Source of the DNA: an uncultured Armatimonadetes bacterium
GTDB lineage: Bacteria > Armatimonadota > UBA5829 > DTJY01
Direction of reading: 5' to 3'
Assembly: GCA_963717145.1 (NCBI GenBank)
Contig: OY970325.1
Coordinates: forward strand, 3,584,001-3,648,000
Length of the DNA stretch: 64,000 bases
In this document: positions 2,040 to 35,592 of the stretch, in pieces
How the letters are laid out: each line of letters begins with the position of its first letter
How positions within the stretch are numbered: the first letter of the stretch is position 1
Made by a program: the position numbers and the translations under genes
Notes under the pieces: generated by a model
The model's database searches: none
Seen by the model: only the letters and a program-made list of their open reading frames with translations
What the model was told of the DNA's origin: nothing

Positions 2040-2110
2040 GGGAAATGGTTGATGGTTCATGGTTGATGGGGGATCAGTCCGCCATTAACCATCAGCCATC
2101 AACCATTCCC
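2040..2110. repeat. Inverted heptamer-array element (ATGGTTG)n...(CAACCAT)n
   Basis: GGGAAATGGTTGATGGTTCATGGTTGATGG...CCATTAACCATCAGCCATCAACCATTCCC. Confidence 0.9.
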
Positions 2111-5016: not shown

Positions 5017-6046
5017 ATGCAGGGAGACGACAAGGGGACGATCCGCAATGTCGATCAGCTCGAGGAGATGCTGAGCGAGCCGACGCAGGGTGTCATCGAC
5101 GCGCTCGGCCGCATCGACGGTGACATTCTGATCCTCGGTGTCGGCGGCAAGATGGGGCCGACGCTCGCTCGTATGGCAAAGCGCGCCGTCGGAGATCGCC
5201 GGGTCATCGGCGTCGACATATTCCCGAACGCCGAGATGCAGTCACGCATCGAGTCGTTCGGGATCGAGACGATCAAGTGCAATCTCCTGGATCCCGACCA
5301 GCTCAACGGTCTCCCGGACGCGAAAAACGTCGTTTTCATGGTCGGCATGAAGTTCGGCTCGACCGGCCAGGAGGCGCTGACCTGGGCGATGAACGCATTT
5401 CTCCCCGGCATGGTGGCGCTCAAGTATCGGAACAGCCGCATCGTGGTCTTCTCGACCGGCAACATCTACGGCCTTGCGCCGGTCCTCCGCGGCGGATCCG
5501 TCGAGACCGACACCCTGAACCCGATCGGCGATTATGCCACGAGCGCACTCGGTCGCGAGCGGATCTTCGAGCACTTCAGCCGCACCTACGGCATCCCGAC
5601 AACCATCATTCGCCTGAACTACGCGATCGACATGCGATACGGCGTGCTGTTCGATATCGCGCAGAAGGTCCTGGCAGGCGAGACAATCGATGTCACGATG
5701 GGCAACGCCAACGTCATCTGGCAGGGCGACGCCAACGCCATGATCCTCCAGTCGTTCAGTGTCGCCGCGACGCCTCCATTCGTGGCTGAACGTCGCCGGC
5801 CCCGAGTTGCTCAGCATCCGTCGGGTCGCCGAGCAGTTCGGCGAGATCATGGGCAAGCCGGTCGCACTCGCGGGATGCGAGTCCCCGGACGGCATCCTCA
5901 GCAACGGGCAACTCGGCCACAAGCTGTTCGGCTACCCGAAAGTCCCCGTCCGCCGGATGATGGGCTGGATCGCCGACTGGGTGATGTCCGGCGGCGCGAG
6001 CCTCGGGAAGCCGACACATTTCGAAAGTCGCGATGGGAAGTTTTAG
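5017..6046 (+). CDS. NAD-dependent epimerase/dehydratase (frameshift near 5780)
   Basis: GVGGKMG Rossmann motif, FSTGNIY, RLNYA; C-terminus NVAGPE...KPTHFESRDGKF lies in another frame. Confidence 0.85.
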
Positions 6047-6128
6047 GGGAATGGGGGATGGTTGATGGTTTATGGTTAATGGGGTCCGGCTCCCATCAAC
6101 CATCAACCATCAACCATCCCCCATTCCC
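6046..6128. repeat. Inverted heptamer-array element
   Basis: GGGGAATGGGGGATGGTTGATGGTTTATGGTTAATGG...CCATCAACCATCAACCATCAACCATCCCCCATTCCC. Confidence 0.9.
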
Positions 6129-10680: not shown

Positions 10681-10688
10681 GGAGCTGT

Positions 10689-11036: not shown

Positions 11037-11059
11037 GTGTTTCCCTCCTGGAAGAAGCG

Positions 11060-11208
11060 AGTGGGGGATGGGGGAAATGGTCAATGGGAAATGGCTGGTT
11101 GATGCTGCGGGAATGCTTTTCTTTCCCGCAGCCGGGGGTACGCTGCGGGAAAGAAAAGCATTCCCGCAGCATCAACCATCAACCATCAACCATTTCCCCT
11201 CATTCCCC
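11060..11208. repeat. Inverted heptamer-array element enclosing a long hairpin
   Basis: ATGG-based units, central GCTGCGGGAATGCTTTTCTTTCCCGCAGC inverted pair, CAACCAT units. Confidence 0.85.
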
Positions 11209-11210
11209 GA

Positions 11211-12116: not shown

Positions 12117-12214
12117 TGGTGTCTCCTTTCAGAATGGTTGATGGGGAGATGGTTAATGGCTAATGGCGGAATGGCTGATGCAGACCGGCCTGCCATCAAC
12201 CATGAACCATCAAT

Positions 12215-13286
12215 TGTCAAGTCCCACCACGTTGTGAACGGTAGTTCAGTAAGTCGGTAGGCTCTTTGATAAACAGATCTGGTCTTTGCGCGTACCAATC
12301 GCAGACCTTCTCATAGGGTGTCTTGCCACCGATCGCGCTGTGCTGTCTCCTTAGATTGTAGATGGTCAGCCACTGGTGGAGTCCATCTATCAACTCCGGA
12401 TATCCAGGATATCTGTGCATCTTGTACGTGCCCTCCTGGATCAGTCCGTTCATGCGTTCCACCAGACCGTTGGTCTTTGGTGTATACGGCCGGGTGAGCC
12501 TGTGTTCAATACCACAGGCTGAGCATACTTCATCAAAGAAGTGAGGTCTCTTCGCCGGACTGCCCCAACGGCTCCAATTGGCCAGAGTGAACTCTCTACC
12601 GTTGTCTGTCAGGATCTTGTGGATCATGAACGGATAGAACCACATGCACAGTCCAAGGAAGCCCACTGCGGATTCCTTGGTTAGGTTGTCGTACACCTGG
12701 AGGAAGGCTAGCCTTGTTGCTCTGTCTACCGCAACGAAGCAATACTTCCTCTTGCCCCCGATCTTGGGCAGGTAGAAACAGTCTATGTGAAGGTATCCAG
12801 GCAGATACTCTTTGAACTTGCCTGGACTTTCTCTCTTTTCTTTTTGGTACTGGGGGAGTCTGCTCACCCCTTTTCTGCTCAGTAAGCGATGTATACTGGC
12901 GCGTTCTGCATTCGGCAGAACTGTGACTACTGCACGCACCAGTGCATCGAGTGCTAGACCTTTGTCCCGGAGCGAGAGGATGATCTCCTCCTCTTCGGGG
13001 CTGAATGCATAATGGATCTTCCTGGGCCGACTGCTGCGGTCTTGCTGGTCACCCCGGGCCTTCCATTTGCAGACTGTTGCCGGCGATACATGGCAGATAT
13101 CTGCGAGCTTTCTGCAGCTCTTGGGACTCTGCCTGAAAAACCGCCGTTGCTTCATATTGCTGGTTGCGTTAGAATGGATCTGCATGCGAGTGGTCTCCTT
13201 TTTTGGTTTGGCGATCATCAAAGAGACTACCGCATGCACCTCCTTCTTTTCAACCCACGGTGTTCATAATGTCATGAGACTGGACA
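12215..13286 (-). mobile_element. IS481-family element, intact copy
   Basis: TGT...ACA ends (TGTCAAGTCCCA / TGTCCAGTCTCA), single rve transposase. Confidence 0.92.
12217..13185 (-). CDS. IS481-family transposase
   Basis: MQIHSNA start, DRSSRP, PGYLHID, TDNGREF, P.TNG.VER DDE motifs. Confidence 0.92.
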   Translation of the reverse strand: MQIHSNATSNMKQRRFFRQSPKSCRKLADICHVSPATVCKWKARGDQQDRSSRPRKIHYAFSPEEEEIILSLRDKGLALDALVRAVVTVLPNAERASIHRLLSRKGVSRLPQYQKEKRESPGKFKEYLPGYLHIDCFYLPKIGGKRKYCFVAVDRATRLAFLQVYDNLTKESAVGFLGLCMWFYPFMIHKILTDNGREFTLANWSRWGSPAKRPHFFDEVCSACGIEHRLTRPYTPKTNGLVERMNGLIQEGTYKMHRYPGYPELIDGLHQWLTIYNLRRQHSAIGGKTPYEKVCDWYAQRPDLFIKEPTDLLNYRSQRGGT

Positions 13287-13309
13287 ATAAACCATCAACC
13301 ATGCATCCC

Positions 13310-13732
13310 CTACCGTGCGTATCCGTCGATCCGGATGCGGACCTGGGTGGCGCTGACGATCTCGGCGATGACGCCGCACTTCACGTCGTTGGTCGTGGCG
13401 GTCGCGTCGTCATCGACGGTCTGATTGTCGACGATGTAGACCTCCTTGCCGACGACCGCCTGAGCGGCATCCCCACCATTGTATGCGAACGTATGTTCGC
13501 CTGTTTTTTCGATGCGGATCTCCTTCGCGCCGGCTGACCCGGCGGAGTTGTCCACCATCTCGTAGCTCACACCGGCGAACAGGAAGCTCGCCGTGTCCGC
13601 TCCGTTCGTGACGTGCCCGCTCGTGTTGATGCATGCCAGTACCCCCTTCGGGATCTTGACGTTCGACATCTTCATCGACTTCAGCTTGCCGTCACTGCGT
13701 TTCGTGTCTCTGTCCGTAGTTGTCGCTGCCAT
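13310..13732 (-). CDS. Mu-like capsid cement/decoration protein (DUF2190-like)
   Basis: T.DR.T, AGV..E.VDN..G.AG, G..VY..D.QTV motifs; lies between scaffold and major capsid. Confidence 0.75.
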   Translation of the reverse strand: MAATTTDRDTKRSDGKLKSMKMSNVKIPKGVLACINTSGHVTNGADTASFLFAGVSYEMVDNSAGSAGAKEIRIEKTGEHTFAYNGGDAAQAVVGKEVYIVDNQTVDDDATATTNDVKCGVIAEIVSATQVRIRIDGYAR

Positions 13733-13757
13733 TGTCACTCACCTTTCTGCATAATGA

Positions 13758-13835
13758 GGGAATGGTTCATGGTCTATGGTTGATGAAAGACCGGCTGCCA
13801 TTAGCCATCAACCATTCCCCACTAACCATTTCCCC
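13758..13835. repeat. Inverted heptamer-array element
   Basis: GGGAATGGTTCATGGTCTATGGTTGATG...CCATTAGCCATCAACCATTCCCC; its end overlaps the stop of the upstream ORF. Confidence 0.88.
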
Positions 13836-15759
13836 TGTGCTTCTCGACTTGCTCGCGGCTGATGCCGAGCTTGGAGAGAAGCTCTTCCTCCTCGGCCGAG
13901 AGTAGTGGCCGTGGCTCAGTCCCGGCCTTCCCCGGAGTCAGCTCCGAGAACTCGATCACCTTCGGCTGGGTCTCCAGGAACTGCAGGAACAGCTCGCCGA
14001 CCGTCGCCTCGCCGTCGGAGAACTTCACGACCTGATCGCCCTGAAGCAGGATCTCTCGCGCGAACGACTCCGACGCCGGCACGATCTTTCCATTCGACTT
14101 CAAGGCCGCCATCCGGGCATCGACGTCCTTCTCCCGAAGCGCGAACTTCAGGTCTGCGATCTCTCGGTCTTTGTCATCTGTGCTCATGCTCTGGTTCACC
14201 TCCCCTCTCGAATGCGGAATTGCGAATGCGGGATTCGGAATGGGTCTGCTCTCCGCGTCCCCGCCTCCCTCCGTCCCCGCGTCTCTGAACATAGTCGCCG
14301 CCGCCACCCTGGGGCTGAGCACCAGGGAGACCTCGGCGAGCCGGAGCGGGTCCTTCAGCAGGCCCACGCTCAGCCGCTTGATGCCCCGGCGCTCCAGGAA
14401 GCTCATCAGGTCTTGCGGAAACGCCAGGGTCGCGAACAGCTCCCTGCCCGTGCGCCAGATCCGCTTCACCGTGCCGACTGCCGGGATGCCGAGATACCCC
14501 CGGATCCACGGCTCGGTCGGCTCGACTACGCGGCCGTCGATCAGCTTCGTGATCAGCCCGCCGAGCAGCTCCAGGTCCTTCTCCTCCAGGCTCCCGAGAA
14601 CGAATCTGGGAATGGACGATGGCTGATGGTTCATGGTTGATGGGACGGCCGGAGTCCGCCCGTTAACCATTCCCCAGTTGATTTCCACCAGCCGGCGGAT
14701 GAGTTGCTCGCGCATGACCGTCTCCTCCAGGTCCCGCTTCAGCCGCTCGAGGTAGAAGCGGAGCACGTCCATGTGCACCTTCGCGAGTGCGACCGACCCG
14801 ACCCGCGACCCTTCATCGCTCGTCAGCGTCTGGCCGAGAATCGCCTTGGCGATCTGTTTGTTGTGGTAGTCGATCGCCGTGATGTATCCCGCATCCCCGC
14901 TCCTCCGGGCCTCGAGCAGCTCGACCGTCACGTCCTCGGGAACGACCAGCGCCGACTCCTGCTGGATCTTGTCGAGCACGCGGAGCAGATCGTCCTGCTG
15001 ATCCTTCGGCACTCCGCGCTTGTACGTGCCCTTGGCGGTCGGCATCCCGAACTTCTCCATATAGAGGTTCCAGAACTTCACGATCGCCTCTTTGCTCCAC
15101 CAGTGCTTGTACGCCGCCCGAAGGTCCGACTGCCCGTGGGGAAGCTCGTAGACCGGCATGTGCGTATACACGATGAACTTCTCCGCCGGCAAACCACTAC
15201 GTTGGGGCACTCCACAGTGTTGGTGCTGGAGTTGCACTCCAGCCCCCCTGTGCGTCAGTCCCCGCACGTTCAGGAACTCGTCCATGTCGAAGCCGAAATC
15301 CGCCGGGTCCTTCGACTTGATGCTCGCCAGCCCGATCATCCCGTCGAACGGGCCGCCCTCGATCGGCTTGTAGTTGATCTCGCAGACCGAGAAGCCCTTC
15401 GCGATCGCATCGAGCACCTTGAAGAGCATCTCCTGCACCGAGCCCTTCATGTCGTTCAGGCAGAACTCGATGAACTGCGCGATGCGGACGTCCTCCGGCG
15501 AATCGGACGCCGGCTGGATGCTCCAGCCCTTCGCGAGGACCGCGAACTTCTTGGTGTTCAGACACGATCGCACCTGGGCGTCGTTCTGCATCTCGTCATA
15601 GACCGCGAACCCCCTGCGGCTGACCAGGTCGTCCGGCGAATACGCAGCGAGACGGAACGCGCCGCTCATCAGGCTCGACCTCGCGACCGCGACCTCGTCC
15701 ATCGCCGGCGTCTTCCGCCCGAAACGCCCAAGGATTCTCTCCGCAATCGATGTTGCCAT
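13822..15759 (-). CDS. Mu gp29/DUF935-like portal fused in frame to a truncated prohead protease and scaffold
   Basis: Y.EM..D..V, A..GFSV.EI, W....EKFG.P, I.KAILGQTLTS, VH portal motifs; then GTVKRIW...LSVGL...EVSLV..PRV and GKIVPA...F scaffold; GGAGG RBS before ATG 15759. Confidence 0.85.
   Translation of the reverse strand: MATSIAERILGRFGRKTPAMDEVAVARSSLMSGAFRLAAYSPDDLVSRRGFAVYDEMQNDAQVRSCLNTKKFAVLAKGWSIQPASDSPEDVRIAQFIEFCLNDMKGSVQEMLFKVLDAIAKGFSVCEINYKPIEGGPFDGMIGLASIKSKDPADFGFDMDEFLNVRGLTHRGAGVQLQHQHCGVPQRSGLPAEKFIVYTHMPVYELPHGQSDLRAAYKHWWSKEAIVKFWNLYMEKFGMPTAKGTYKRGVPKDQQDDLLRVLDKIQQESALVVPEDVTVELLEARRSGDAGYITAIDYHNKQIAKAILGQTLTSDEGSRVGSVALAKVHMDVLRFYLERLKRDLEETVMREQLIRRLVEINWGMVNGRTPAVPSTMNHQPSSIPRFVLGSLEEKDLELLGGLITKLIDGRVVEPTEPWIRGYLGIPAVGTVKRIWRTGRELFATLAFPQDLMSFLERRGIKRLSVGLLKDPLRLAEVSLVLSPRVAAATMFRDAGTEGGGDAESRPIPNPAFAIPHSRGEVNQSMSTDDKDREIADLKFALREKDVDARMAALKSNGKIVPASESFAREILLQGDQVVKFSDGEATVGELFLQFLETQPKVIEFSELTPGKAGTEPRPLLSAEEEELLSKLGISREQVEKHRGNG
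14608..14675. repeat. Inverted heptamer-array element in frame within portal
   Basis: Encodes WGMVNGRTPAVPSTMNHQPSSIP. Confidence 0.85.
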
Positions 15760-15842
15760 CCCCCACCTCCTACTCCTACTCATACTCATACTCATACTCA
15801 TACTCTGATCCTGATCCTGCCCCGTTTTCGTGGACAGATCAC

Positions 15843-21536: not shown

Positions 21537-21552
21537 TGCAAGAATCATGCCA
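21537..21552 (-). promoter_or_regulatory. sigma54 promoter, originally upstream of the PEP-CTERM gene
   Basis: TGGCATGATTCTTGCA, 14 bp outside the IS1182 CTAG target. Confidence 0.7.
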
Positions 21553-22008
21553 ATCGGGCGCGATTATCTGGAAAGAGAATCTCGACAGCACGTTTACCGT
21601 ACCTCACTGCCGGGTATCCTTCCTCTGCAAGACCAAAAACTGAATACTGATTTGCCAGGCTAAACCACGAGCCTCCCAGTTTGAACCTCGTTGGAAACGA
21701 CGCTGGAACTGACTGCGAGGAGGTTGTCCGTAGGAAACCCTAACCTTCATTTGGTGGTAACATCTTATTGGGGCGGTAAGGAGACCGAAGGGCACGTCGT
21801 GATACGATAACGCCGTCACCTGCCTACGCGATTGCATCAAGAGGCAAGGGGTGTCGTGTAAGTTAAACGGCGAACGAGCTAAGGCCTGGCATTTTTGCGT
21901 GTCTATCCCAGTGGGAGTTCGCGATTGTTGATAGTTGCGCTGCGCGGATGTCATTCTTCACTGCGTTCAGAATGACATCCGCTATCCTTGATCGCGAACT
22001 CGTACCCC

Positions 22009-23441
22009 GGGTGCATTCGCGTTGAGTGGGTAGCAAGTAAGGAAGGAGTCTCCTGTAATAGTCGGTAACGGTTTGTTGAAGGACAAACATTCCGAAAGGA
22101 GACTCCCAGAGAATGCTTACACTTTTGCACACAGACTCCCTCCTTCAGGCCGCTCGCGACTTTGCGCGCAGCTACATCGATTGCACGGACTTAGGGTCAG
22201 CCGAGGAGCGTATTCAGATCCTGGCGCGTCAGATTGCCGGCGCAATGATGAGTGAGGTTGCCGCCAAGATGAGCGGAAAGCCCACCTACAAGGGTGTTGG
22301 GATAGAATGCGAATGCGGCAGACTGGCCAGGTTCAAGGGATACCGGAAACGCTTCATTCGGACTTTGCACGGAGACATAGAGGTCGAGAGGTCATACTAC
22401 CGTTGCGACCATTGCAGGCGGGGCTACATTCCATGGGACCGCGAGCAGGGGCTGTCCGAGAGAGTATGGACCGCCAGAGTGAAGGAACTCACCGCCTCGA
22501 TCTGCGCCGCGCTTCCATATGAAGCAGCCGCAAGGCTGATCGAGCGAACCACGGGTATTGCGATCGAAGAGAGCAGCGAAGAAGAGATAGTCCGGGATGT
22601 TGGGGAATGCCTCCGCCGAGAGGAGCAGGAAGCGATCATCTCTGTGGTAGACACAGGTGAAGAGGTCTCCTGCGAGGCGACGCCACAGAGGCTCTACATT
22701 GGCATAGACGCGGCCAAAGCGCACACCGATGGCCAGTGGCATGACATCAAGACCATGGTGGTATACGAAGGCGTTCCGGCTGCAGGCAAAGACACGGATA
22801 CCGTCACCAACTCGCGCTACATAGCGGCGCAAGAGACGAGCGACGAGTTCGGGAGACGGGTATACACCAGAGCACTGCAAGCCGGCTATGACGGGGCAAA
22901 AGAGCGTATAGTGATCGCCGACGGCGCAGACTGGATATGGAGAGAGGTCAGGAATCATCTGCCGGAGAGCATCAAGATCATCGACTACTGGCATGCCTGT
23001 GAGCACATATACGGCTTGGCGCGGACACTCTACGGAGAGGGGAATCCCAAAGGGAAGCGCTGGGCAAACGAACACTGCCGGAAGCTTAAAGAGAAGGGGC
23101 CGGGGAGTCTGCTTAGAGCCATGAAGCGGCGCAGAGCACGAAACGATTCTGAGAGGGAAGCGCTTCGGATCGAGACAGGCTACTTCAGAAAGTACCGCAA
23201 GTACATGAACTACCCGGCATACAGGGCCAAGGGGATGATGATAGGCAGCGGTCCGGTGGAAGCGGCGTGCAAGGTGATAGTAGGCCAGAGGTTAAAGCAA
23301 GCCGGGATGCGATGGACGAAGGACGGCGCAGATGCAGTGCTCGCGGTGAGAACTGCCCTCCTAAGCGGCGAACTGGCTCGGATCGAGCACGCAGCACGTG
23401 CCGCCTGAGCCGTGCTCTACCCACTCTGAGGAATTCCACCC
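22009..23441 (+). mobile_element. ISKra4/ISLre2-like (Mutator/IS256 superfamily) element, copy 1
   Basis: 1433 bp, imperfect TIR GGGTG...GAGTGGGTAG, 10-bp TSD CTCGTACCCC. Confidence 0.9.
22113..23408 (+). CDS. ISKra4/ISLre2-like transposase
   Basis: CECG/CDHC Zn motif, GIDAA, ADGADWIW, DYWHA, IGSGPVEAACK. Confidence 0.9.
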   Translation: MLTLLHTDSLLQAARDFARSYIDCTDLGSAEERIQILARQIAGAMMSEVAAKMSGKPTYKGVGIECECGRLARFKGYRKRFIRTLHGDIEVERSYYRCDHCRRGYIPWDREQGLSERVWTARVKELTASICAALPYEAAARLIERTTGIAIEESSEEEIVRDVGECLRREEQEAIISVVDTGEEVSCEATPQRLYIGIDAAKAHTDGQWHDIKTMVVYEGVPAAGKDTDTVTNSRYIAAQETSDEFGRRVYTRALQAGYDGAKERIVIADGADWIWREVRNHLPESIKIIDYWHACEHIYGLARTLYGEGNPKGKRWANEHCRKLKEKGPGSLLRAMKRRRARNDSEREALRIETGYFRKYRKYMNYPAYRAKGMMIGSGPVEAACKVIVGQRLKQAGMRWTKDGADAVLAVRTALLSGELARIEHAARAA

Positions 23442-25117: not shown

Positions 25118-26359
25118 ATGCGCTCAAAGTACACACAACACGCGGTAACTCGCTTCACATTGGCTCTGACAACACTGGTGGCGGTCACACTGCTGCTGGC
25201 CTCGCTGTCATCCGCCGCGACCCAGAAGAAGGGCCTGCTCGATGAACTCGGACTCCCGATGCTGTCGGGTGCGAAACTCCTCGACGAGGTCAATATCCCT
25301 CCCGGCAAGCTGCTCGACGAGTTGGCCAAGGAGATCAACGGGCAGCTCGGCATGGTCGAGCTGAAGCAGTTGAGCACCCTAACATTGTCGATCGACAAGA
25401 CGCCCGAGGAGGTGTTCAAGTTCTACGAGCCGGCGCTCGACAAGCAGCAGTGGAAGGTTCTGGCCCGCGCCGTGGACCGCAAGCCTGAGGGCGACGGCAT
25501 CGGCCTCTTCTTCAACGATAAGAAGGGGCTTCTGGTAATGGTTGTCTCGGGATCCGATTCGGAAGACGGCGAGATGACGTTCATCCGCATGCAGGGCAAG
25601 ATCGACACGTCCAAGTTCGGCACGAGCGACAAAGAGATGTCGGACGAACTGAAAAAGATGCTCGGTGCTGCACTGCCCGATAATGGCAATCTCGGCATGG
25701 GAAGAGCCGCCCCCATCCCGATCGGCCGGCCGATCTCCGTTCCTCCTTCGGAGAAGCTGGTCATCAAGACGACCAAGTCCGACATAACCGCCACGATATT
25801 CAACCAAAAGACTGTGGAGATCCGCCTCACTCGAAAAGCCACCGACCCCGGCGAACTCGTTCGCGTGGACGACCTGCTCGTGCTCTCCCTGACGCCGAAG
25901 CTCCCGGTCGATGAGATCGACCTCCCCGGCGCGGTTCCGGTCGCATTCGACCTCACCGACGGCTCCCTGACACTCACATCCGGCCCGAAACCCGGCGACA
26001 AGCCGGTCCACCTGAGCATCGTTTCGACCAGCGCAGCAGTCACCGTGGAGGATTTCCCGCTCCTGTCCGGCACGCACATGGTGAAGATCGTCGACGCGGA
26101 GTTGAGCATCACGTTCAAGAAGGTTCAGGCCGGCGATATGGTGATCAGTTCGACCGGCGATGACGTGACGATCACCCTGCCGAAAGACGCGTCGGTGAAG
26201 GTCGATGTAGATGTAGTGGAGGGGAAGATCCAGAAGCAGATCGCGGCTGAGATGCAGAAGGACGACCCCGATCACGTAGTCTTCCAGTTGGGCGCTGGGA
26301 AGGCTCAGATCGCCATCCACGCGGTCAAGGGCAACGTCATCATCAAGTCCGCAGAGTAG
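25118..26359 (+). CDS. Secreted protein with C-terminal DUF4097/adhesin-like beta repeat
   Basis: Signal peptide; S..GDV..TLP...G.I...G.V.I repeats; third gene of the ECF operon. Confidence 0.7.
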   Translation: MRSKYTQHAVTRFTLALTTLVAVTLLLASLSSAATQKKGLLDELGLPMLSGAKLLDEVNIPPGKLLDELAKEINGQLGMVELKQLSTLTLSIDKTPEEVFKFYEPALDKQQWKVLARAVDRKPEGDGIGLFFNDKKGLLVMVVSGSDSEDGEMTFIRMQGKIDTSKFGTSDKEMSDELKKMLGAALPDNGNLGMGRAAPIPIGRPISVPPSEKLVIKTTKSDITATIFNQKTVEIRLTRKATDPGELVRVDDLLVLSLTPKLPVDEIDLPGAVPVAFDLTDGSLTLTSGPKPGDKPVHLSIVSTSAAVTVEDFPLLSGTHMVKIVDAELSITFKKVQAGDMVISSTGDDVTITLPKDASVKVDVDVVEGKIQKQIAAEMQKDDPDHVVFQLGAGKAQIAIHAVKGNVIIKSAE

Positions 26360-26432
26360 AGGAATGGTTGATGGCTGATGGTTAATGGTTCATGGGCAGA
26401 TGGCGGACGGGAAATGGCTGATGGTTCATGGG

Positions 26433-26924
26433 CTATGGTCGGTGGTCTGCGGGATCGCAGTTGAGTAGCTCCTCACCGGGAGCTACCACGTAGTCGAACC
26501 CTTCCTCCCTGACTGCACACGAGGCTGGTTTCGCTTTACCTCGCTCCTCTATCTTGCGCTCGATGCTCCCGATGAGATTCGCGAGTTGCGCGAGAGCGGC
26601 ATCGTAATCAGAAATCACTTTCTTGGCCTCGGATTCGCCTAACCGGCCGACACCGATGCCATACCGGATATGGGTGATAGTCTCGCGAGCTTCTCGTCGA
26701 CAGCGATAGAGCGCCTGCACGTACTCGGTGCTATACTGGGAGTAGAATCCTTCCGTCAGATTGGCGCACACCGACTCGGAAGAGCGCAGCACCTGAGTCC
26801 TCAGCCACCGGAAATCCATCCCGAGTCCTCCGGATAGCTCCTCAACCTGAAGCGCCAGGGCAAAGAACTCCTGGTACACAGGCATATCCTCAACCTGCCG
26901 AATGCCGCTCACTGCTTCCCCCAT
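26433..26924 (-). CDS. Four-helix-bundle protein (23S rRNA IVP/bAvd-like family)
   Basis: EDMPVYQ...LA, L..Q..RSS.SV.AN..EG, Y...L....A.ET motifs. Confidence 0.85.
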   Translation of the reverse strand: MGEAVSGIRQVEDMPVYQEFFALALQVEELSGGLGMDFRWLRTQVLRSSESVCANLTEGFYSQYSTEYVQALYRCRREARETITHIRYGIGVGRLGESEAKKVISDYDAALAQLANLIGSIERKIEERGKAKPASCAVREEGFDYVVAPGEELLNCDPADHRP

Positions 26925-27112
26925 TCCCCATCAACCATCAACCATCAACCATCAACTGTCCAGTCTCATGACATTATGAACACCGTGGGTTGAAAAGAAG
27001 GAGGTGCATGCGGTAGTCTCTTTGATGATCGCCAAACCAAAAAAGGAGACCACTCGCATGCAGATCCATTCTAACGCAACCAGCAATATGAAGCAACGGC
27101 GGTTTTTCAGGC

Positions 27113-28545
27113 GGGTGGAATTCCTCAGAGTGGGTAGAGCACGGCTCAGGCGGCACGTGCTGCGTGCTCGATCCGAGCCAGTTCGCCGCTTAGGAGGGCA
27201 GTTCTCACCGCGAGCACTGCATCTGCGCCGTCCTTCGTCCATCGCATCCCGGCTTGCTTTAACCTCTGGCCTACTATCACCTTGCACGCCGCTTCCACCG
27301 GACCGCTGCCTATCATCATCCCCTTGGCCCTGTATGCCGGGTAGTTCATGTACTTGCGGTACTTTCTGAAGTAGCCTGTCTCGATCCGAAGCGCTTCCCT
27401 CTCAGAATCGTTTCGTGCTCTGCGCCGCTTCATGGCTCTAAGCAGACTCCCCGGCCCCTTCTCTTTAAGCTTCCGGCAGTGTTCGTTTGCCCAGCGCTTC
27501 CCTTTGGGATTCCCCTCTCCGTAGAGTGTCCGCGCCAAGCCGTATATGTGCTCACAGGCATGCCAGTAGTCGATGATCTTGATGCTCTCCGGCAGATGAT
27601 TCCTGACCTCTCTCCATATCCAGTCTGCGCCGTCGGCGATCACTATACGCTCTTTTGCCCCGTCATAGCCGGCTTGCAGTGCTCTGGTGTATACCCGTCT
27701 CCCGAACTCGTCGCTCGTCTCTTGCGCCGCTATGTAGCGCGAGTTGGTGACGGTATCCGTGTCTTTGCCTGCAGCCGGAACGCCTTCGTATACCACCATG
27801 GTCTTGATGTCATGCCACTGGCCATCGGTGTGCGCTTTGGCCGCGTCTATGCCAATGTAGAGCCTCTGTGGCGTCGCCTCGCAGGAGACCTCTTCACCTG
27901 TGTCTACCACAGAGATGATCGCTTCCTGCTCCTCTCGGCGGAGGCATTCCCCAACATCCCGGACTATCTCTTCTTCGCTGCTCTCTTCGATCGCAATACC
28001 CGTGGTTCGCTCGATCAGCCTTGCGGCTGCTTCATATGGAAGCGCGGCGCAGATCGAGGCGGTGAGTTCCTTCACTCTGGCGGTCCATACTCTCTCGGAC
28101 AGCCCCTGCTCGCGGTCCCATGGAATGTAGCCCCGCCTGCAATGGTCGCAACGGTAGTATGACCTCTCGACCTCTATGTCTCCGTGCAAAGTCCGAATGA
28201 AGCGTTTCCGGTATCCCTTGAACCTGGCCAGTCTGCCGCATTCGCATTCTATCCCAACACCCTTGTAGGTGGGCTTTCCGCTCATCTTGGCGGCAACCTC
28301 ACTCATCATTGCGCCGGCAATCTGACGCGCCAGGATCTGAATACGCTCCTCGGCTGACCCTAAGTCCGTGCAATCGATGTAGCTGCGCGCAAAGTCGCGA
28401 GCGGCCTGAAGGAGGGAGTCTGTGTGCAAAAGTGTAAGCATTCTCTGGGAGTCTCCTTTCGGAATGTTTGTCCTTCAACAAACCGTTACCGACTATTACA
28501 GGAGACTCCTTCCTTACTTGCTACCCACTCAACGCGAATGCACCC
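27113..28545 (-). mobile_element. ISKra4/ISLre2-like element, copy 2
   Basis: Same ends and identical transposase protein as 22009-23441; 9-bp TSD TTTTCAGGC at 27104-27112 and 28546-28554. Confidence 0.92.
27146..28441 (-). CDS. ISKra4/ISLre2-like transposase
   Basis: Identical protein to 22113-23408. Confidence 0.9.
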   Translation of the reverse strand: MLTLLHTDSLLQAARDFARSYIDCTDLGSAEERIQILARQIAGAMMSEVAAKMSGKPTYKGVGIECECGRLARFKGYRKRFIRTLHGDIEVERSYYRCDHCRRGYIPWDREQGLSERVWTARVKELTASICAALPYEAAARLIERTTGIAIEESSEEEIVRDVGECLRREEQEAIISVVDTGEEVSCEATPQRLYIGIDAAKAHTDGQWHDIKTMVVYEGVPAAGKDTDTVTNSRYIAAQETSDEFGRRVYTRALQAGYDGAKERIVIADGADWIWREVRNHLPESIKIIDYWHACEHIYGLARTLYGEGNPKGKRWANEHCRKLKEKGPGSLLRAMKRRRARNDSEREALRIETGYFRKYRKYMNYPAYRAKGMMIGSGPVEAACKVIVGQRLKQAGMRWTKDGADAVLAVRTALLSGELARIEHAARAA

Positions 28546-29489
28546 TTTTCAGGCAGAGTCCCAAGAGCTGCAGAAAGCTCGCAGATATCTGCCATGTATC
28601 GCCGGCAACAGTCTGCAAATGGAAGGCCCGGGGTGACCAGCAAGACCGCAGCAGTCGGCCCAGGAATATCCATTATGCATTCAGCCCCGAAGAGGAGGAG
28701 ATCATCCTCTCGCTCCGGGACAAAGGTCTAGCACTCGATGCACTGGTGCGTGCAGTAGTCACAGTTCTGCCGAATGCAGAACGCGCCAGTATACATCGCT
28801 TACTGAGCAGAAAAGGGGTGAGCAGACTCCCCCAGTACCAAAAAGAAAAGAGAGAAAGTCCAGGCAAGTTCAAAGAGTATCTGCCTGGATACCTTCACAT
28901 AGACTGTTTCTACCTGCCCAAGATCGGGGGCAAGAGGAAGTATTGCTTCGTTGCGGTAGACAGAGCAACAAGGCTAGCCTTCCTCCAGGTGTACGACAAC
29001 CTAACCAAGGAATCCGCAGTGGGCTTCCTTGGACTGTGCATGTGGTTCTATCCGTTCATGATCCACAAGATCCTGACAGACAACGGTAGAGAGTTCACTC
29101 TGGCCAATTGGAGCCGTTGGGGCAGTCCGGCGAAGAGACCTCACTTCTTTGATGAAGTATGCTCAGCCTGTGGTATTGAACACAGGCTCACCCGGCCGTA
29201 TACACCAAAGACCAACGGTCTGGTGGAACGCATGAACGGACTGATCCAGGAGGGCACGTACAAGATGCACAGATATCCTGGATATCCGGAGTTGATAGAT
29301 GGACTCCACCAGTGGCTGACCATCTACAATCTAAGGAGACAGCACAGCGCGATCGGTGGCAAGACACCCTATGAGAAGGTCTGCGACTGGTACGCGCAAA
29401 GACCAGATCTGTTTATCAAAGAGCCTACCGACTTACTGAACTACCGTTCACAACGTGGTGGGACTTGACAATTAACCATCAACCATTCC

Positions 29490-32045
29490 CTAGAATAGCT
29501 TCCCCGGCGGGGGGACGACCGACTTGATGCAGAGGATCGCGACATCGTCCGTCAACCGATCGCCGGCATAGTTGCGGACACTCGTGAACACCGCTTCCGA
29601 CAGATTCCGGCTGCTCAGCCTGATCTGCCTCTTCACGATCTCGTATACGCCCTCGGTGTTCAGGAGGCCCTGGTCCCCTCGGGCTTCGGTCGCGCCGTCT
29701 GTGTAGAACACCAGGATGTCGCCGTTCTTGAATGCCAGGGTCTGTGATTCGTACTCCGCCTCGGGAACGGCCCCCGCGGCCACACCGGTCGATTCCAGGC
29801 AGATCAGTTTCTCGTCTTCCTCCCTGTAGTGGAAGGGCAGTTCATGCCCCGCGTTGACATAGGTGAACTCGCCCTTGCCGGAATCCAGCAGGCCATAGAC
29901 CAGCGTGATGAAGCGGTTCGTCGGAATGTGAGTATTGAGCGCGCTGTTCAGCTTGGTCACCACCGCCACCGGATCGGGATCATCGTTGGCGTAAGCCTTG
30001 ATCATGTGCTTCGCCATGCCCATGTAGACCGCCGCATCAGGTCCTTTCCCGGCCACATCTCCGATGGCCACGCCATATCGCCCCTCGCCGAGATCGAGCA
30101 CGTCGAAGAAATCCCCCCCGACCGCGGAAACCTCCGGGTCGACGTGGTAGTACGCGTTGATCTCCATGCCGGGGAAGTCACGATCGATCGAGGACATGAT
30201 GCTGTCCTGCAGGCACTTCGCGATGTTCTGCTCGCGCTCGTATTGTTGCGCATTCCGAACGCCCGCCGCGACGAACTTCGACAGCATCTCGAGCAGCCGG
30301 ATATCCGATTCACCCCACGGCTCTCCGTTCGAGCGGAAGACGTTGATCGCGCCAACGTTCCGCCCACGCAGCAGCATCGGCACGGAGAGCAGGTGGTGCA
30401 CACCTTCGTTTTCTCCCATCAATTCGGGGTACTTACAGTGGCAGCAGTTCGGAACGTCGTTGAGCACCCGCAATTGCCCGCTGTCCGCGACCAGAAGAGC
30501 CGCCTGGTCGCACTGATCGACGTGCTCAGCGACGAAATGCTCCCTCGAGGGCCGCTTGTAGCCGAGTATCCTCATCCGACCCGCCTCACGATCGAAGATC
30601 AGGACCGAGCATGTCTCTGCCATGAGTACATTCTTCAACTCGGCGCCGAGGCGGTCCACCAGCGAATCGAGTTGGATCTCGGACGTGATCGCCTCACCGA
30701 TCTTGCTCACCGTTTCAAGCTCGTGAACGCGCGCCTCATACTCAGTGGTCGACTCGTTCATCCGCATCCCCTTCTGGACGCGCTCGACGGCGAGTGCTGT
30801 CTGGGAGGCGAACACATCGAGCAGGTGGAGTCGGTCCTTCTGCTTACGCGAGCCCGGAACCCGCTTGAAGACTGCCATCAGAACGCCGACGACCGATTCC
30901 CCGAACTCCGTAGTCACCAGGAGCGGGACGGCGACGGCCGACCGTCGGGTCCCTACCTCTCCTAGCTTGAGCGAAAGGCTGTCGTTTCCCCCGGCATCAG
31001 CCACGTACTTCGTCTCCCGAGTGCTCACGGCTTCACCGACCGGCCCGTCGCCGGATCGGAACACGAGGCTCTTCTTCGTCTCCTCATCGAAGCCGGTCGA
31101 GGCGGCAACATAGACGAGGTTACGGGTCCGATCGTACGGCATAAGACAGACCGCGTCGAACTTGAAGAACGCCGCGATAATCTCCACGATCTGCTGGTAG
31201 AGCTTGCTCGGGCTCGTCGTGGAGATGATGGCGTCCTGCAGATCGCCGAGTGTTCGCAGTTCGGCCGACTGCCCCTCGATGCATCCCCTGAGCCGCGCGT
31301 GTTCGGCCACAAGGCCCGCGACGGGCGTAATGTAGCTCAGCAGCTTCATCATGTTCGCCAGCCCCGAGAGCATCCCGGTATCAGCGGCGTACTTCCCCGT
31401 ATGCGAGAGCACCGCCGAGAGTTGCGCGAAGACTCCGAAGATCAATCCATAGCTGATCCACGCCAGGAGAGTGCTGTTCCGCTGCACTGCGGGGCGTGAG
31501 TAGGCAAACCATGCAAGGGCAAAGAGGACGACGGATACGAGAGCGGTGTTCCGGGCGGCGTCGCCTCCGGCAAGCAGTTTGTCGACCGAGAACTCACTCA
31601 CGGAGAAGAGCACCACCGCCACCCACAGGACCACGCCCGTCAGGTAGACAACCGCTCGCAGCTTGGTCGTGCGCCTTGGAGTGTGAGTCCGCGCCGCGAG
31701 CGCACCGTAGAGCAGCAACGCAGCGAGGGTCAGCCGCCCCGCATACCAGAGGGCCAGGCCGCTCGCGACACTGGAGGCCGGAAGCAGCGCGCACCATGCA
31801 TCCACCAATCCGGCGGCGAAGAACCCGGCGGCGACGCAGAGGAATATCTTCCGTCCGTGGATCAGGTACTCGGCAATGGCTGCCGCGAAGACTGTCAGCG
31901 CGATCAGTGCCGCGAACCCGCCTGTGGCCTGTGCGGATGTGGCCATCCCGAAGTGCTCAGGCTTCGATGCATTTCCGGCCGCCGCGATCAGAAGCAGTAC
32001 TGCGCCGCAGACCGCGATCAAGATCAGTGTTGCCGTTCTCCTCAT
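29490..32045 (-). CDS. Membrane sensor with two GAF domains and SpoIIE/PP2C phosphatase
   Basis: Multi-TM N-terminus, GAF motifs, VGGDFFD, GDVAGKG, NAGH, YTDG.TEA, DD.A. Confidence 0.9.
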   Translation of the reverse strand: MRRTATLILIAVCGAVLLLIAAAGNASKPEHFGMATSAQATGGFAALIALTVFAAAIAEYLIHGRKIFLCVAAGFFAAGLVDAWCALLPASSVASGLALWYAGRLTLAALLLYGALAARTHTPRRTTKLRAVVYLTGVVLWVAVVLFSVSEFSVDKLLAGGDAARNTALVSVVLFALAWFAYSRPAVQRNSTLLAWISYGLIFGVFAQLSAVLSHTGKYAADTGMLSGLANMMKLLSYITPVAGLVAEHARLRGCIEGQSAELRTLGDLQDAIISTTSPSKLYQQIVEIIAAFFKFDAVCLMPYDRTRNLVYVAASTGFDEETKKSLVFRSGDGPVGEAVSTRETKYVADAGGNDSLSLKLGEVGTRRSAVAVPLLVTTEFGESVVGVLMAVFKRVPGSRKQKDRLHLLDVFASQTALAVERVQKGMRMNESTTEYEARVHELETVSKIGEAITSEIQLDSLVDRLGAELKNVLMAETCSVLIFDREAGRMRILGYKRPSREHFVAEHVDQCDQAALLVADSGQLRVLNDVPNCCHCKYPELMGENEGVHHLLSVPMLLRGRNVGAINVFRSNGEPWGESDIRLLEMLSKFVAAGVRNAQQYEREQNIAKCLQDSIMSSIDRDFPGMEINAYYHVDPEVSAVGGDFFDVLDLGEGRYGVAIGDVAGKGPDAAVYMGMAKHMIKAYANDDPDPVAVVTKLNSALNTHIPTNRFITLVYGLLDSGKGEFTYVNAGHELPFHYREEDEKLICLESTGVAAGAVPEAEYESQTLAFKNGDILVFYTDGATEARGDQGLLNTEGVYEIVKRQIRLSSRNLSEAVFTSVRNYAGDRLTDDVAILCIKSVVPPPGKLF

Positions 32046-32210: not shown

Positions 32211-35200
32211 CTAGTTGTACTCGATATTGTACTGAGTGAAGTCAGCGTAGCTCGAGAAGTTGCTCGTTCTGGTCACGAACTGCCTGACCCTCATCTCACC
32301 CGTAGCCGAGATGTAGTTGAGCGGACTGGTCGTGTTCCAGGAGACCAGCACGTCGGTCGCGCCAACGGTCCTGCTGTCTATCTGCACCCATGCCGATGTG
32401 GTGAAGTTGTACAGGTACAACACCTGGGTCAGCGAGGCAGACAGATGGCTGTCGAAGTTGATCGTCAGCTTGGTAACACTGGTCCGAGGCTCAGCGATCG
32501 TCACCGAGCTGTACCAGTCGACCTGGCGAGCCGAACCCACCTTGACCGAGTTGATCCTCAGGTACGAGGCGTCATTGGCGCCGAGGTTCGTCACGCTCCC
32601 CGAGCCAATCGATCCTCTGGTGATCGTGATGGCGGTCGGCGCGTAGTCCTTGGTCTGGGGCCCGCTCGGAGGAGTCGTGACCACGTCCGGGGCGCTCTGA
32701 GCCGACTCGTTCAGGGCCGCATCATACGCGCTTACGGTGTAGCTGTAAGTGGTATTCGGCGAGCAGGTCGTGTCGGAGTAGCTGGCCGTTGGACTCGTTC
32801 CGACCTGGGCGCTGTCCCGGAATACCTTGTAGCCGGTCACTCCGACGTTGTCGGTCGAGGCGGTCCAAGTCAGGTCGACGCGGGTGCCTGAGATCGCCGT
32901 CGCGTTCAGGTTCGTCGGCACGGTGGGAGCCTCTGTATCCGGCCCACCGCTGACCTGGAAGAACCTGGCGGCATCGGCCATGACTACCAGACTCGCCTCA
33001 CCGGTGGCATTCCCGACCTTGAGGTAGCCCGCTGTACCCGTCAGGAACGACTTGTTGCTGACCAGTACATGCCATGCCCCGCCACCGGACTGCTGGTTCA
33101 TGTTGACCTGCTGACTTCCACCGTTCCAGTACACGATGTACGGAGCAGCAGTCGTGCGGTTTGCGCCCGCAGGATACCAGCAGGAGACGTCGTAGCCGCC
33201 GGCCTCCTCGATGTTCGGACGCCATATCGCTGTGCCGGTCTCAGAGACCTGGGTACCGATGAAGCGGTAGTCGGCACCGTACTTGTCGACCGACGAAGTA
33301 CCCGTCGACCATGAGCCGGTGAAGGTCGCCTGCGGGTTGTCGATGATGAAGTCGGTGATCGCGGGAGTCGTCGCCTGAACAGGGGCACACTGTGCGCTCT
33401 CGTTCAGGGCGGCGTCGTATGCGCTCACCGCGTAGCTGTAGGTGGTGTTCGACGCGCAGGTCGTATCGGAGTATGAGGTGTTCGTCGTCGAGTTCAGATA
33501 TCCACCATTGCGGAAGACCTTGTAGCCGGCGACGCCAAAGTTGTCGGTCGAGGCGGTCCAGCTCAGGTTGATCTGGTTCGGTGAGACGGGTGTTGCAGAC
33601 AGGTTCGTCGGTACGGTCGGAGCCTCGGTATCAGGCGCGCCGCCGACCTGGATGCTCTTGGTCACGGTTGCGCCGAACCAGGTTACGCCGTCACGGACCA
33701 TCTGCCAGTCGGTGATGTACGGCCCTTCCACGCTCGGAGCTGTCAGGTTGAATGTGAAGGTGTAAGTCCCGCCCGGGTTGACCTCGCCTGATATCGTGTG
33801 GCGGGTCGTACCCGTGAACGGATCGGAGTCGCCGACCGCGCCGAGTCTGAACGACTTGGCCTCATTCCAGAGAACGCCTCGGTCGCGCAGGGTAATGCTC
33901 ACCTGTCGGACCTCGCTGGGGGCCATCGTCGCCGGGATGGTGTCGCTGACGTACTCGGACGAGTAGAAGCCCCACGTCGGGGTCGTCCCGAAGTACGTGC
34001 AGATGCCTCTGTAGATCCCCCACATCGCGCCGGAGGTCCAGAAGTGGTCCTTCATCTTGACCGCATCCAGGTCGCAGCTATCGTGGAAGCCAAGCTCGAT
34101 CAGGATGGCGGCCCGGTCCGGGATTCGTATCTCGCCATATGCGCCGTTCGAGTCATGCCGACCCCGATCTACCCAACCCGAGTCTCCGACCTCGTTCCTG
34201 ATGGCATTGATGAGGCTTGGGTGGACGGCGTTGGCAAGGTCGGAGCTGACTGTACACCACGCATTGTGCTCGGCAACACAGTCATAGTACGTGTCAGTGC
34301 CTGTCGGGCAGCTTCCGCCGTAGCAGTTGCCGGCCGAGCCATTCGTGTGCAGCGAGATGTAGATGTTCGTGTTGTCGTAGTCGGATGCGAGCGGCCTCGC
34401 ACGAATGTCGTCGCTTGATTCGCTGGCGCCATCACCGAGCGAACAGCCGCTATAGCTGCCGTAGACTGAACACGGATAGCCGACATTCTGCAGCCAGTAC
34501 GGGGAAGCCATCTTCCACCAGTCAAAGCCCAGGTACTGGCCAAAACCCTTGTCATGGCAGCGGACCTTCTTGACCAGCATACCGTCCGCCTCGAGGAACG
34601 ATGTGAGGTAGAGGGCGTGGTCGAGGTTGTGCAGGTCCTCTTCGCTGAGGGGCGCGCAGTAGACCGGCCGCTGGGTATACCACCCGCTGCCGTTCCAGAA
34701 GATGCCGTGGCCCGGCGACAGCGTGATGCTGCGACCCGAGAGCGAATCCGTACCGATGAGTCCATCCTCCGCCTTCACTCCATGAGGCTCGATGAACGGT
34801 GTCGGCTTCAGGAAGGTGGCGAGCGGCTCTCCCTCGACCAGGATGCGCAGGTCGATCTCGATGCCATAGTAATACAGTGTCCACTTCACCTGATTGAAGA
34901 TCGCCTCGATCCGCATTTCGTCCAGGCCGGACGATGTCAGCCTTCCTGAGAAGTTGACGATGTAGGTGTTGCCCTCGAGGCTCGTGTCGAGGACTACCGT
35001 GCCCCTGGGCACGGCGGACGAAAGACCGAGTGTCGCAAGCAGGCGCGACGGGCCTCCTGCAAGGGCATTGAGCGCCGAAACGGCGTCGGTTACAGCCGGG
35101 TTGTCAATCACAGTGACCTTTCCGAACTGATCGAGGTAACCTACGGGACCGGCGTGAGCTACTGTGGCGAGGAGAAGCAGACCCAGTAGCAGAGGCGCGA

Positions 35201-35228
35201 GACGGGGCGAAAGACGTATGCCTTTCAT
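32211..35228 (-). CDS. Secreted N-acetylmuramoyl-L-alanine amidase (GerMN, Amidase_3, NBR1-Ig-like, Fn3, golvesin-like domains)
   Basis: SPGHG, E, SLHTN, IELGFHD Zn ligands; DTEAPTVP/WTASTDN.GV.GY Fn3 repeats. Confidence 0.88.
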   Translation of the reverse strand: MKGIRLSPRLAPLLLGLLLLATVAHAGPVGYLDQFGKVTVIDNPAVTDAVSALNALAGGPSRLLATLGLSSAVPRGTVVLDTSLEGNTYIVNFSGRLTSSGLDEMRIEAIFNQVKWTLYYYGIEIDLRILVEGEPLATFLKPTPFIEPHGVKAEDGLIGTDSLSGRSITLSPGHGIFWNGSGWYTQRPVYCAPLSEEDLHNLDHALYLTSFLEADGMLVKKVRCHDKGFGQYLGFDWWKMASPYWLQNVGYPCSVYGSYSGCSLGDGASESSDDIRARPLASDYDNTNIYISLHTNGSAGNCYGGSCPTGTDTYYDCVAEHNAWCTVSSDLANAVHPSLINAIRNEVGDSGWVDRGRHDSNGAYGEIRIPDRAAILIELGFHDSCDLDAVKMKDHFWTSGAMWGIYRGICTYFGTTPTWGFYSSEYVSDTIPATMAPSEVRQVSITLRDRGVLWNEAKSFRLGAVGDSDPFTGTTRHTISGEVNPGGTYTFTFNLTAPSVEGPYITDWQMVRDGVTWFGATVTKSIQVGGAPDTEAPTVPTNLSATPVSPNQINLSWTASTDNFGVAGYKVFRNGGYLNSTTNTSYSDTTCASNTTYSYAVSAYDAALNESAQCAPVQATTPAITDFIIDNPQATFTGSWSTGTSSVDKYGADYRFIGTQVSETGTAIWRPNIEEAGGYDVSCWYPAGANRTTAAPYIVYWNGGSQQVNMNQQSGGGAWHVLVSNKSFLTGTAGYLKVGNATGEASLVVMADAARFFQVSGGPDTEAPTVPTNLNATAISGTRVDLTWTASTDNVGVTGYKVFRDSAQVGTSPTASYSDTTCSPNTTYSYTVSAYDAALNESAQSAPDVVTTPPSGPQTKDYAPTAITITRGSIGSGSVTNLGANDASYLRINSVKVGSARQVDWYSSVTIAEPRTSVTKLTINFDSHLSASLTQVLYLYNFTTSAWVQIDSRTVGATDVLVSWNTTSPLNYISATGEMRVRQFVTRTSNFSSYADFTQYNIEYN

Positions 35229-35253
35229 AAAGAATCCCTCCCATGAGATTTAT

Positions 35254-35343
35254 CCACGCGGGCTTCAGGTGATCGCTGGTGGCCTTGGGAGAGCAATCGC
35301 GCTTTTTTGGTGGGAAACGATCCGTCTGATAGAAGCCTAGTGG
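35254..35343 (-). promoter_or_regulatory. Conserved structured 5'UTR, copy 1 (candidate cis-regulatory RNA)
   Basis: GAUCGUU/AGCGAUC stem and CCCA.GGCCACC shared with 37597-37697; promoter TTTACA-N17-TATACT at 35354-35382. Confidence 0.55.
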
Positions 35344-35592
35344 CGTTGCGTCGAGTATATCAGAGGCACAGGCATCTGTAAAGAAGAAATTTGGCGGTGT
35401 TACCTTCGGCGGTAGAAGAGTAAGGGCCGGCTGGGATCAGCCGGCCCTCTATCAACTTGCCCTCTGGTTTGAGGTCTATCGTCGATGCATCGGCAGCCAA
35501 GCCTCACGAGGCCGCCGATGCATCACACGTGTCGCTTGCCGATGCTTCGGCAGCAGAGCCTCGCGGCGCTGCCGATGCATCACAGGCCTCGC

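Follow-up and report, generated by a model that had tools for sequence, protein, structure and literature searches.

In a 64,000-nucleotide stretch from an uncultured Armatimonadetes bacterium (contig OY970325.1, positions 3,584,001 to 3,648,000; hereafter the window), we found a cassette in which a gene of the 23S rRNA intervening sequence protein (IVP) family, PF05635, is enclosed by inverted arrays of heptamers with a fixed ATGG core. The IVP gene is inherited and transferred along with its repeat unit, both the cassette and hairpins of this type without a gene come and go at gene ends, and at orthologous loci the gene and the ATGG cores are conserved in place while the spacers drift. Our leading explanation, to which we give about even credence, is a hairpin cassette of the rRNA intervening sequence (IVS) type that has its place in ordinary operons, and whose putative Avd-like protein would bind its own repeat.

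The cassette and its protein

The genome, designated G000, is a single 5.37-Mb contig, 98% complete, with 4500 genes by our own gene calls; same-family relatives place it with the Armatimonadota. The interval 26360..29490 (~3.1 kb) had been presented as a single cassette in a preliminary description. The gene and both arms are there, but 2.5 kb of the interval is inserted insertion sequence (IS) DNA, an IS481-like element holding an ISKra4 element, which splits one arm and leaves ~620 bp for the cassette proper. In essence, the cassette consists of a PF05635 gene with an (ATGGNNN)n arm on one side and an (NNNCCAT)n arm on the other, and exactly occupies the space from the stop codon of one gene to that of its convergent neighbour, one of them being DUF4097-like and the other SpoIIE/GAF. 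Its outer ends read TAG followed by AGGAATGG on the left, and CCATTCC followed by CTA on the right. The IVP gene (163 codons for amino acids) lies on the minus strand at 26433..26924. The G-rich 3' arm (26360..26438, plus strand; period 7 in Tandem Repeats Finder) starts directly after the stop codon of the DUF4097-like gene (26357-26359) and overlaps the IVP stop codon, and is composed of, in this order, AGGA, ATGG-TTG/CTG/TTA/TTC units, a short stretch that is out of register and another three ATGG units. The C-rich 5' arm is interrupted at 26956/29471 by the IS481-like element. Its inner part, (CCATCAA)n, is located at 26921..26956 (plus strand), and its innermost ATGG core supplies the ATG start codon of the IVP gene, while the outer part, at 29471..29490 (plus strand), ends with CCATTCCC, and its final base also belongs to the stop codon of the SpoIIE/GAF gene upstream (29490-32045, minus strand). 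The two arms pair with each other in the predicted fold of 26360-26956. A sigma-70 promoter scan of 26300-29600 gave 0 sites, and no Rfam rRNA match was found in 25500-30500, the cassette standing between two protein genes and not in 23S or 16S rRNA. The earlier statement that there is no transposase holds for the cassette proper, which encodes only PF05635, but not for the interval, which contains two transposase genes, both belonging to the inserted IS elements.

Profile searches placed the 163-amino-acid open reading frame (ORF) in PF05635 (51.3 bits, cut-off 33.8) and TIGR02436 (50.2 bits, cut-off 24), bearing out the initial assignment of a four-helix-bundle gene bracketed by inverted heptamer arms. 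The structure model (predicted local distance difference test score, pLDDT, 83.9) has four helices, and was most similar to Xcc0516 (Z 18.9, root mean square deviation (rmsd) 1.0, 112 residues aligned), followed by BT_0352 (Z 15.0) and the Avd/bAvd proteins of diversity-generating retroelements (DGRs; Z 14.4-14.5), which outranked all other chains. Over this whole group, Z ranged from 14.4 to 18.9, rmsd from 1.0 to 3.9 Å and identity from 11 to 21%. The structures of Xcc0516 (2gsc) and BT_0352 (2rld) contain five chains each, and the ESM Atlas returned PF05635 clusters exclusively, two of them also with bAvd. The polar residues Q44, S51 and E81 are invariant in 80 of 80 sequences, and R47, N55 and E58 are present in 75 of these. 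The ratio of nonsynonymous to synonymous substitutions (dN/dS) was 0.06-0.39 in all 33 pairs from relatives and at most 0.21 in 32 of them, indicating that the gene is under purifying selection there. At 36 of 40 loci it has the same sense as the upstream gene.

Coupling of protein clade and repeat unit

Inverted arrays flank each of the four PF05635 genes of the genome, with a different unit in every case, and the same build is found around all three GxxExxY genes, with units of 8/9 nt. We collected 138 IVP loci from relatives and GTDB, of which 119 had sufficient flank and coverage. Inverted periodic flanks were present at 83 of these 119 loci, compared to 25 of the 4500 genes of this genome (8 of 1069 small genes), hence four-helix-bundle genes are flanked by arrays more often than other genes. 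The clade of the protein described here comprises 46 GTDB loci with 52-70% identity, mainly from six phyla: Verrucomicrobiota, Kiritimatiellota, Lentisphaerota, Nitrospirota, Marinimicrobia and Armatimonadota. A quick tree was made of the 96 loci with a detectable unit (42 of the 138 were excluded because of a weak or missing array, short coverage or, in two cases, duplication). In this tree the clade has an SH-like approximate likelihood ratio support (SH-aLRT) of 99, and 34 of its 35 rows have ATGG-core arms, one of these 34 with a 6-nt unit, so that protein clade and flanking unit co-vary. The clade spans ~14 gene junctions, grouped by eye and with gene names read from translations. Outside the clade, the similarity of units declines along with the identity of the proteins: of 15 pairs at 60-69% protein identity, 13 had units within 2 changes of each other, versus 8-15% of the pairs below 50%, some of the close pairs being the same orthologous locus. 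Since kin are not independent, these associations are patterns and not formal tests. As close relatives of the protein in other bacterial groups have the same repeat, the protein may read the ATGG repeat.

Among 41 genomes of the class, ATGG arrays are abundant and dispersed solely in G000 (369 matches), G009 (71) and G007 (48), which are the three class genomes where the clade protein was found. Among 301 genomes of the phylum, the clade occurs in 3, the hairpin in 4 and both in 2.

Dispersed hairpins, their inheritance and their inserted elements

With a strict pattern, 147 clusters were recovered across the genome, comprising 118 G-arms and 114 C-arms, whereas two Markov simulations (orders 2 and 5) gave 0 G-arms and 0 C-arms each, hence the arrays are not due to chance. 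A G-arm is followed by a C-arm in 70 clusters and the reverse order occurs in 0. Looser arm pairing yielded 91 hairpins, all 91 distinct and 90 intergenic. Of the 60 empty hairpins between co-directional genes, 53 begin -21 to +9 nt from the upstream stop codon and often provide that stop. The 7-nt period, with TGA/TAA in common units of the G-rich arm, puts a stop into each of the three reading frames within 21 nt, whichever strand is read, thus survival of hairpins at stop codons and gene ends is to be expected. In 295 middle units selected by their neighbours alone, the ATGG core is 98-99% conserved, compared to 66, 74 and 50% for the three spacer positions. Pairing alone would constrain spacers and cores equally, from which we infer a sequence-specific recognition of the core. 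The modal number of cores in ATGG arms is five, and arm length is peaked rather than geometric.

The six empty copies previously listed for the window all exist, but only three are simple intergenic hairpins with a short spacer: 2040..2110 (predicted RNA fold -48.9 kcal/mol), 6046..6128 and 13758..13835, the latter at the 3' end of a portal ORF. The copy at 11060..11208 has a nested, unrelated palindrome pair in its spacer, and the C-arm of the one at 12132..13310 carries, as identified by BLAST, an intact IS481-like element (1072 bp, 12215-13286; transposase 12217-13239, minus strand). The sixth (14608..14675, minus strand) lies in frame inside a Mu-like portal gene. It is translated, has a trimmed G-arm and replaces a 6-codon loop of the orthologue in the closest relative, G001, and no duplication was found at its ends. 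The portal gene is part of a Mu-like head module (portal, protease-like and capsid genes) at 8493-15801 (minus strand). Its presence in 45 of 53 class genomes, in most cases as a single copy, suggests a domesticated phage head, perhaps one resembling a gene transfer agent. In this genome the portal ORF continues without a stop into the next gene. At least seven other inverted tandem-repeat families with 6-9-nt units occur in the window (2415-2490, 3978-4055, 14209-14283, 15767-15819, 39849-39992, 43560-43728, 50715-50798 and 61995-62128), and several of them have units that are also found beside IVP or GxxExxY genes, either in this genome or in those of relatives. Elsewhere in the genome, a tRNA-like gene (by eye tRNA-Arg; G000:C1:2128024-2128232) is flanked by two complete ATGG hairpins.

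Presence and absence at orthologous sites, a feature expected of transposable elements of the miniature inverted-repeat type (MITEs), was observed, in line with the earlier expectation. The syntenic comparison with G001 covered ~1.17 Mb of 4.5 Mb and 353 syntenic junctions, 16 of which have an ATGG element in G000. G001 has the ATGG family at 0 of these 16 junctions; several are short clean gaps and some hold another family. Conversely, one junction that is a 14-bp gap in G000 is occupied in G001 by a filled cassette belonging to a different clade. Next to the DUF4097 orthologue the cassette is missing from all 9 relatives compared, with a different heptamer hairpin at that position in G001, and an exact empty site was not found, the SpoIIE neighbour not being within 1.5 kb of the DUF4097 orthologue in any of the nine. 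In several relatives (loci L165-L168) a repeated motif ending with GGAAGGAGAAAAAG, with A-runs upstream, lies 3' of the DUF4097 orthologue. Filled and empty copies both persist at fixed loci across Nitrospirota. In the inherited filled cassette, core positions are 95-98% conserved versus 39-58% for spacer positions (59 units, 14 loci), and in an inherited empty copy, present at 8 loci, cores are conserved in 35-38 of 38 units and spacers in 17-24 of 38. Whole-unit insertions and deletions were seen between orthologous arms. At the Nitrospirota locus L026 a gene is followed by an empty hairpin, a dapF-like gene (named from its translation) and the filled cassette, while at L003, L016 and L028 the filled cassette comes directly after the first gene, as if the middle gene had been lost by recombination between arms.

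The preliminary description had suggested that the cassette may be a master copy and the empty hairpins its non-autonomous derivatives, and a MITE-style relation of this kind is not supported. Target-site duplication was not detected, the longest flanking direct repeat being 3.26 versus 3.31 in shuffled controls (80 copies), and there were no near-identical copies among the 91 hairpins, the median nearest-neighbour score being 0.56 per base. The single case of identical sister sequence is a common 65-bp flank linked to an IS. Sharing of multi-unit haplotypes was almost absent (188 three-unit pairs versus 180 shuffled, p 0.35; 19 four-unit pairs versus 10, p 0.05), the arms are not mirrored, the presumed master copy is itself split by an IS, and there are large families without a cognate IVP in this genome (TGGG 8-mer, 133 arms; TACT 6-mer, 110 arms). 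The missing cassette transposase, duplications and near-identical copies likewise do not fit an autonomous IS with MITE derivatives. As a whole, the earlier observation is partly confirmed and its interpretation partly supported.

Mobility could also reside in the protein itself, if the IVP were the mobilisation factor of an autonomous element with the empty hairpins as non-autonomous derivatives, using a borrowed host enzyme (repair polymerase, nuclease or reverse transcriptase) or its own unrecognised activity. This would fit the abundance of ATGG arrays in just the three class genomes with the clade protein, the six conserved polar residues, which could make an active or binding site, the filled cassette in G001 where G000 has the 14-bp gap, and an earlier proposal of a mobility role for the IVS ORF (as cited in PMC4990558). 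However, a profile search of the 98% complete genome gave no match to the reverse transcriptase family PF00078, and none was found in G001, which has 15 IVP matches. The lack of identical sisters beyond the IS-linked flank, of duplications and of mirrored arms, and the stay of filled and empty copies at fixed Nitrospirota loci, also argue against it, and we consider such a mobilisation role possible but doubtful. A group II-type reverse transcriptase ~4 kb from the clade gene in G009 does not lie in an ATGG array and looks incidental.

Neutral microsatellite hairpins, arising from local slippage or quasi-palindrome template switching without any role for a protein, would account for the whole-unit insertions and deletions between orthologous arms and for every copy being unique. 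Yet slippage as a generator was rejected, since repeats of non-consensus units within an arm were rarer than chance (31 versus 43.8, p 0.003), and so was snap-back birth or template switching, with mirroring in 55 of 235 cases against 23.5% in shuffles. Unit sharing between the two arms of a hairpin equalled chance (48 versus 47.4), arm length is peaked and polarity is fixed. Already disfavoured, a neutral origin appears very improbable. A role as intrinsic terminator was discarded as well, with a T4 tail in 3 of 60 hairpins, and adenine-directed mutagenesis of the spacers, as in DGRs, is at odds with the invariant adenines of the ATGG core.

A further alternative is that the hairpins are REPIN-like, being both spread and maintained by another factor (a GxxExxY PD-(D/E)xK nuclease, a transposase of the Y1/HUH type or some protein of the host), and that the IVP gene is cargo, having landed once in a hairpin loop to hitch-hike with that unit. 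The three GxxExxY genes in the same build point in this direction, as do the uptake of other DNA by loops and arms (the nested palindrome pair, the IS481-like copies and one ISKra4), the orphan families, which are as well conserved as the IVP-matched ones, and the finding that, where G000 has an element at a junction, G001 is more likely to have a different family there (6 of 35 versus 13 of 314, p 0.007). The genome also has seven Y1_Tnp matches, all outside the cassette and none among the 25 genes with periodic inverted flanks in an automated listing. Cargo, on the other hand, would need no purifying selection, and 83 of 119 diverse IVP genes keep their arms, with many units sorted by clade. 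We find it unlikely that the IVP is a passenger.

The hairpins also serve as targets for insertion. The IS481-like element in the 5' arm (26957..29470, plus strand, in segments 26957-27112 and 28546-29470; 99.8-100% identical to the intact copy by BLAST) has TGT...ACA ends, and its transposase, for which NF033577 is the best family (217.4 bits, slightly below the cut-off of 224), is broken by the ISKra4 element (27113..28545, minus strand; NF033572, 274.5 bits, cut-off 205). The latter has the transposase expected of its family by hidden Markov model (27146-28441, minus strand), terminal inverted repeats and a 9-bp duplication at 27104-27112 / 28546-28554. All 12 IS481-like copies in the genome lie within ATGG arrays, although these arrays contain just 612 of the 19784 genomic RTYRAY sites, and as a control, among 11 other ISKra4 copies 1 was in such a hairpin. 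Thus, the IS481-like element targets ATGG arrays, and hit the 5' arm after the cassette was in place. TGT...ACA ends together with a short duplication are a trait of the IS481 family. The 6-bp duplication is exact at 7 of the 12 copies; at the other five the 6-mers differ and are not reconciled by exchanging flanks, and we speculate that cutting occurred in a register slipped by one unit. Two copies (G000:C1:1679855 and 4111524) have the identical 65-bp left flank mentioned above and are therefore not independent, implying an IS-linked duplication or an assembly repeat. A metagenomic relative, 92% identical, is likewise inside a CCATYAA array, and 4 of 5 copies of more distant relatives in G199 adjoin another palindromic repeat. 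At the G199 loci L145, L147, L151 and L141 this repeat resembles a repetitive extragenic palindrome (REP), with 7-bp duplications in most copies. Elsewhere in the window, 18608-23408 contains a cluster of IS66, DDE_Tnp_1/DUF772 and a second ISKra4 copy, and genes that look split or frameshifted are located at 4900-6138, 57387-60694 and 32211-36825 (epimerase, DNA polymerase III alpha pieces and a duplicated amidase/Golvesin gene), these being either assembly errors or pseudogenes.

A putative repeat-binding protein and its relation to known systems

According to our leading explanation, a promoterless cassette, built like the ORF-bearing 23S rRNA IVSs, would reside at ordinary operon junctions, with the PF05635 gene inside a stem-loop whose arms are ~25-32 nt of tandem units, in each of which the core is fixed (ATGG in this case) and a spacer of 3 nt is free. 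The IVP protein would assemble into a ring oligomer resembling that of Avd and recognise the periodic core, in all likelihood on the stem-loop of the mRNA. The empty hairpins would then be dispersed binding sites, involved in mRNA processing, stability or coupling, instead of inert transposon copies, and new copies would come by a non-transposase route without target duplication.

Several results weigh against this explanation. The TGGG and TACT families have cores that are equally well conserved, hence cores can stay conserved in a genome without a cognate IVP. G-U wobble pairs were not biased by transcription or replication strand (p 1.0 and 0.39 for a preference for the transcribed strand), which lends no support to action at the RNA level. 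The core of the IVP protein is acidic (isoelectric point 5.9), whereas Avd is described as positively charged, and the missing PF00078 match in this genome counts here too. Two draft genomes (G254 and G302) have ATGG hairpins without the clade protein or an ATGG-armed IVP among the loci viewed, the clade members L033 and L031 and a G203 fragment have altered units, and the number of array matches varies between 0 and 75 among ten genomes from other phyla that bear the clade. Co-transfer by itself can explain the coupling of clade and unit. Finally, the five-core mode of the ATGG arms is not common to other families. The idea of five cores for five subunits was rejected, since the mode is 4 for TGGG/CGAA/AGGA and 3 for one GxxExxY family, and as the mode differs among families a fixed arm length fits equally well.

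The closest known counterparts are the 23S rRNA IVSs with S23p in Coxiella burnetii and Leptospira, which, as described in PMC4990558, also have an ORF of the PF05635 family within the loop that a terminal stem closes, tandem heptamers just 5' of the start codon and a sense orientation in the host transcript, and are sporadic and horizontally acquired. In Coxiella, according to the same account, tandem GACAGAT heptamers lie in an RNase III stem upstream of S23p. The cassette described here differs in its location between protein genes, its >100 gene-less copies and a gene under purifying selection in relatives, where the Coxiella ORF is described as decaying (PMC4990558). Based on the structure model, the protein shares the four-helix fold with Avd of DGRs (PDB 4dwl, 8ub7) and the pentamers Xcc0516 (2gsc) and BT_0352 (2rld), although identity is only 11-21% and no reverse transcriptase was found in the genome. 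In the reported Avd pentamer, all five protomers contact an RNA stem-loop, with flipped-out bases in crevices between protomers (10.1101/2023.10.23.563531). A GGGAATC array overlaps the xcc0516 start codon, for which the corresponding row lists no inverted partner (PMC4692102, supplement 2, row 27).

REPtrons and TIRtrons, with their REPINs or bacterial interspersed mosaic element (BIME) doublets, are similar in having one gene-bearing copy and many intergenic hairpin doublets (PMC3733652; PMC3116915), which lie near gene ends and are used by IS elements as targets (PMC3733652). The hairpins found here are likewise intergenic doublets near gene 3' ends (90/91 and 53/60, see above). Unlike REPtrons, the cassette has no HUH transposase, its arms are tandem heptamers with free spacers and there are no identical copies. 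IS elements that target REP palindromes (PMC3733652) also have all their copies in a dispersed palindromic repeat, but ours is an IS481-like DDE element, its target is a tandem heptamer and the flanking 6-mers differ in 5 of 12 copies. The Xanthomonas/Nostoc GGGAATC (PMC4692102) and Beggiatoaceae TAACTGA (PMC4679880) repeats resemble the present arrays in being intergenic, often in inverted pairs (70 cases in Xcc; PMC4692102), with three-frame stops and a patchy spread, and are proposed sites of an unknown regulator. In contrast to the coupling described here, neither account, in the portions cited, draws a link to PF05635, and one states that no transfer mechanism is evident. PMC8700078 merely lists PF05635-type genes in the portion cited, and in a search that extended to neither subscription journals nor bioRxiv supplements, no literature link of PF05635 to dispersed hairpin families was found. 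The parts, S23p-bearing IVSs, dispersed heptamer pairs and REPtrons, are thus known separately, as far as these sources go (PMC4692102; PMC4679880; PMC3733652). What is added here is the clade-unit test, the core constraint in inherited empty copies, the failed MITE criteria and the targeting by an IS.

For the IS481-like element, the finding means that ATGG hairpins double as landing sites. More broadly, two open questions meet, namely the role of the widespread PF05635/S23p proteins, and why heptamer repeats are so common (PMC4692102, PMC4679880, in the portions cited). A far-reaching view, which we put forward only tentatively and hold to be doubtful, is that the PF05635 proteins make up a large family that reads repeats in a sequence-specific manner. 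Each clade would recognise one 6-8-nt unit, and would guard as well as seed its own hairpins at operon junctions; seeding would involve no transposase, duplication or copy-paste signature and would build arms with fixed cores and fresh spacers. If true, this would point to an ancestral function for the S23p/Avd fold and account for the excess of bacterial heptamer repeats. The genome supplies four natural protein-unit pairs, allowing a direct comparison of cognate and swapped binding. If the protein does read its repeat, a small oligomeric protein would be tied to a periodic motif by a code, and the DGR accessory protein would have a likely origin.

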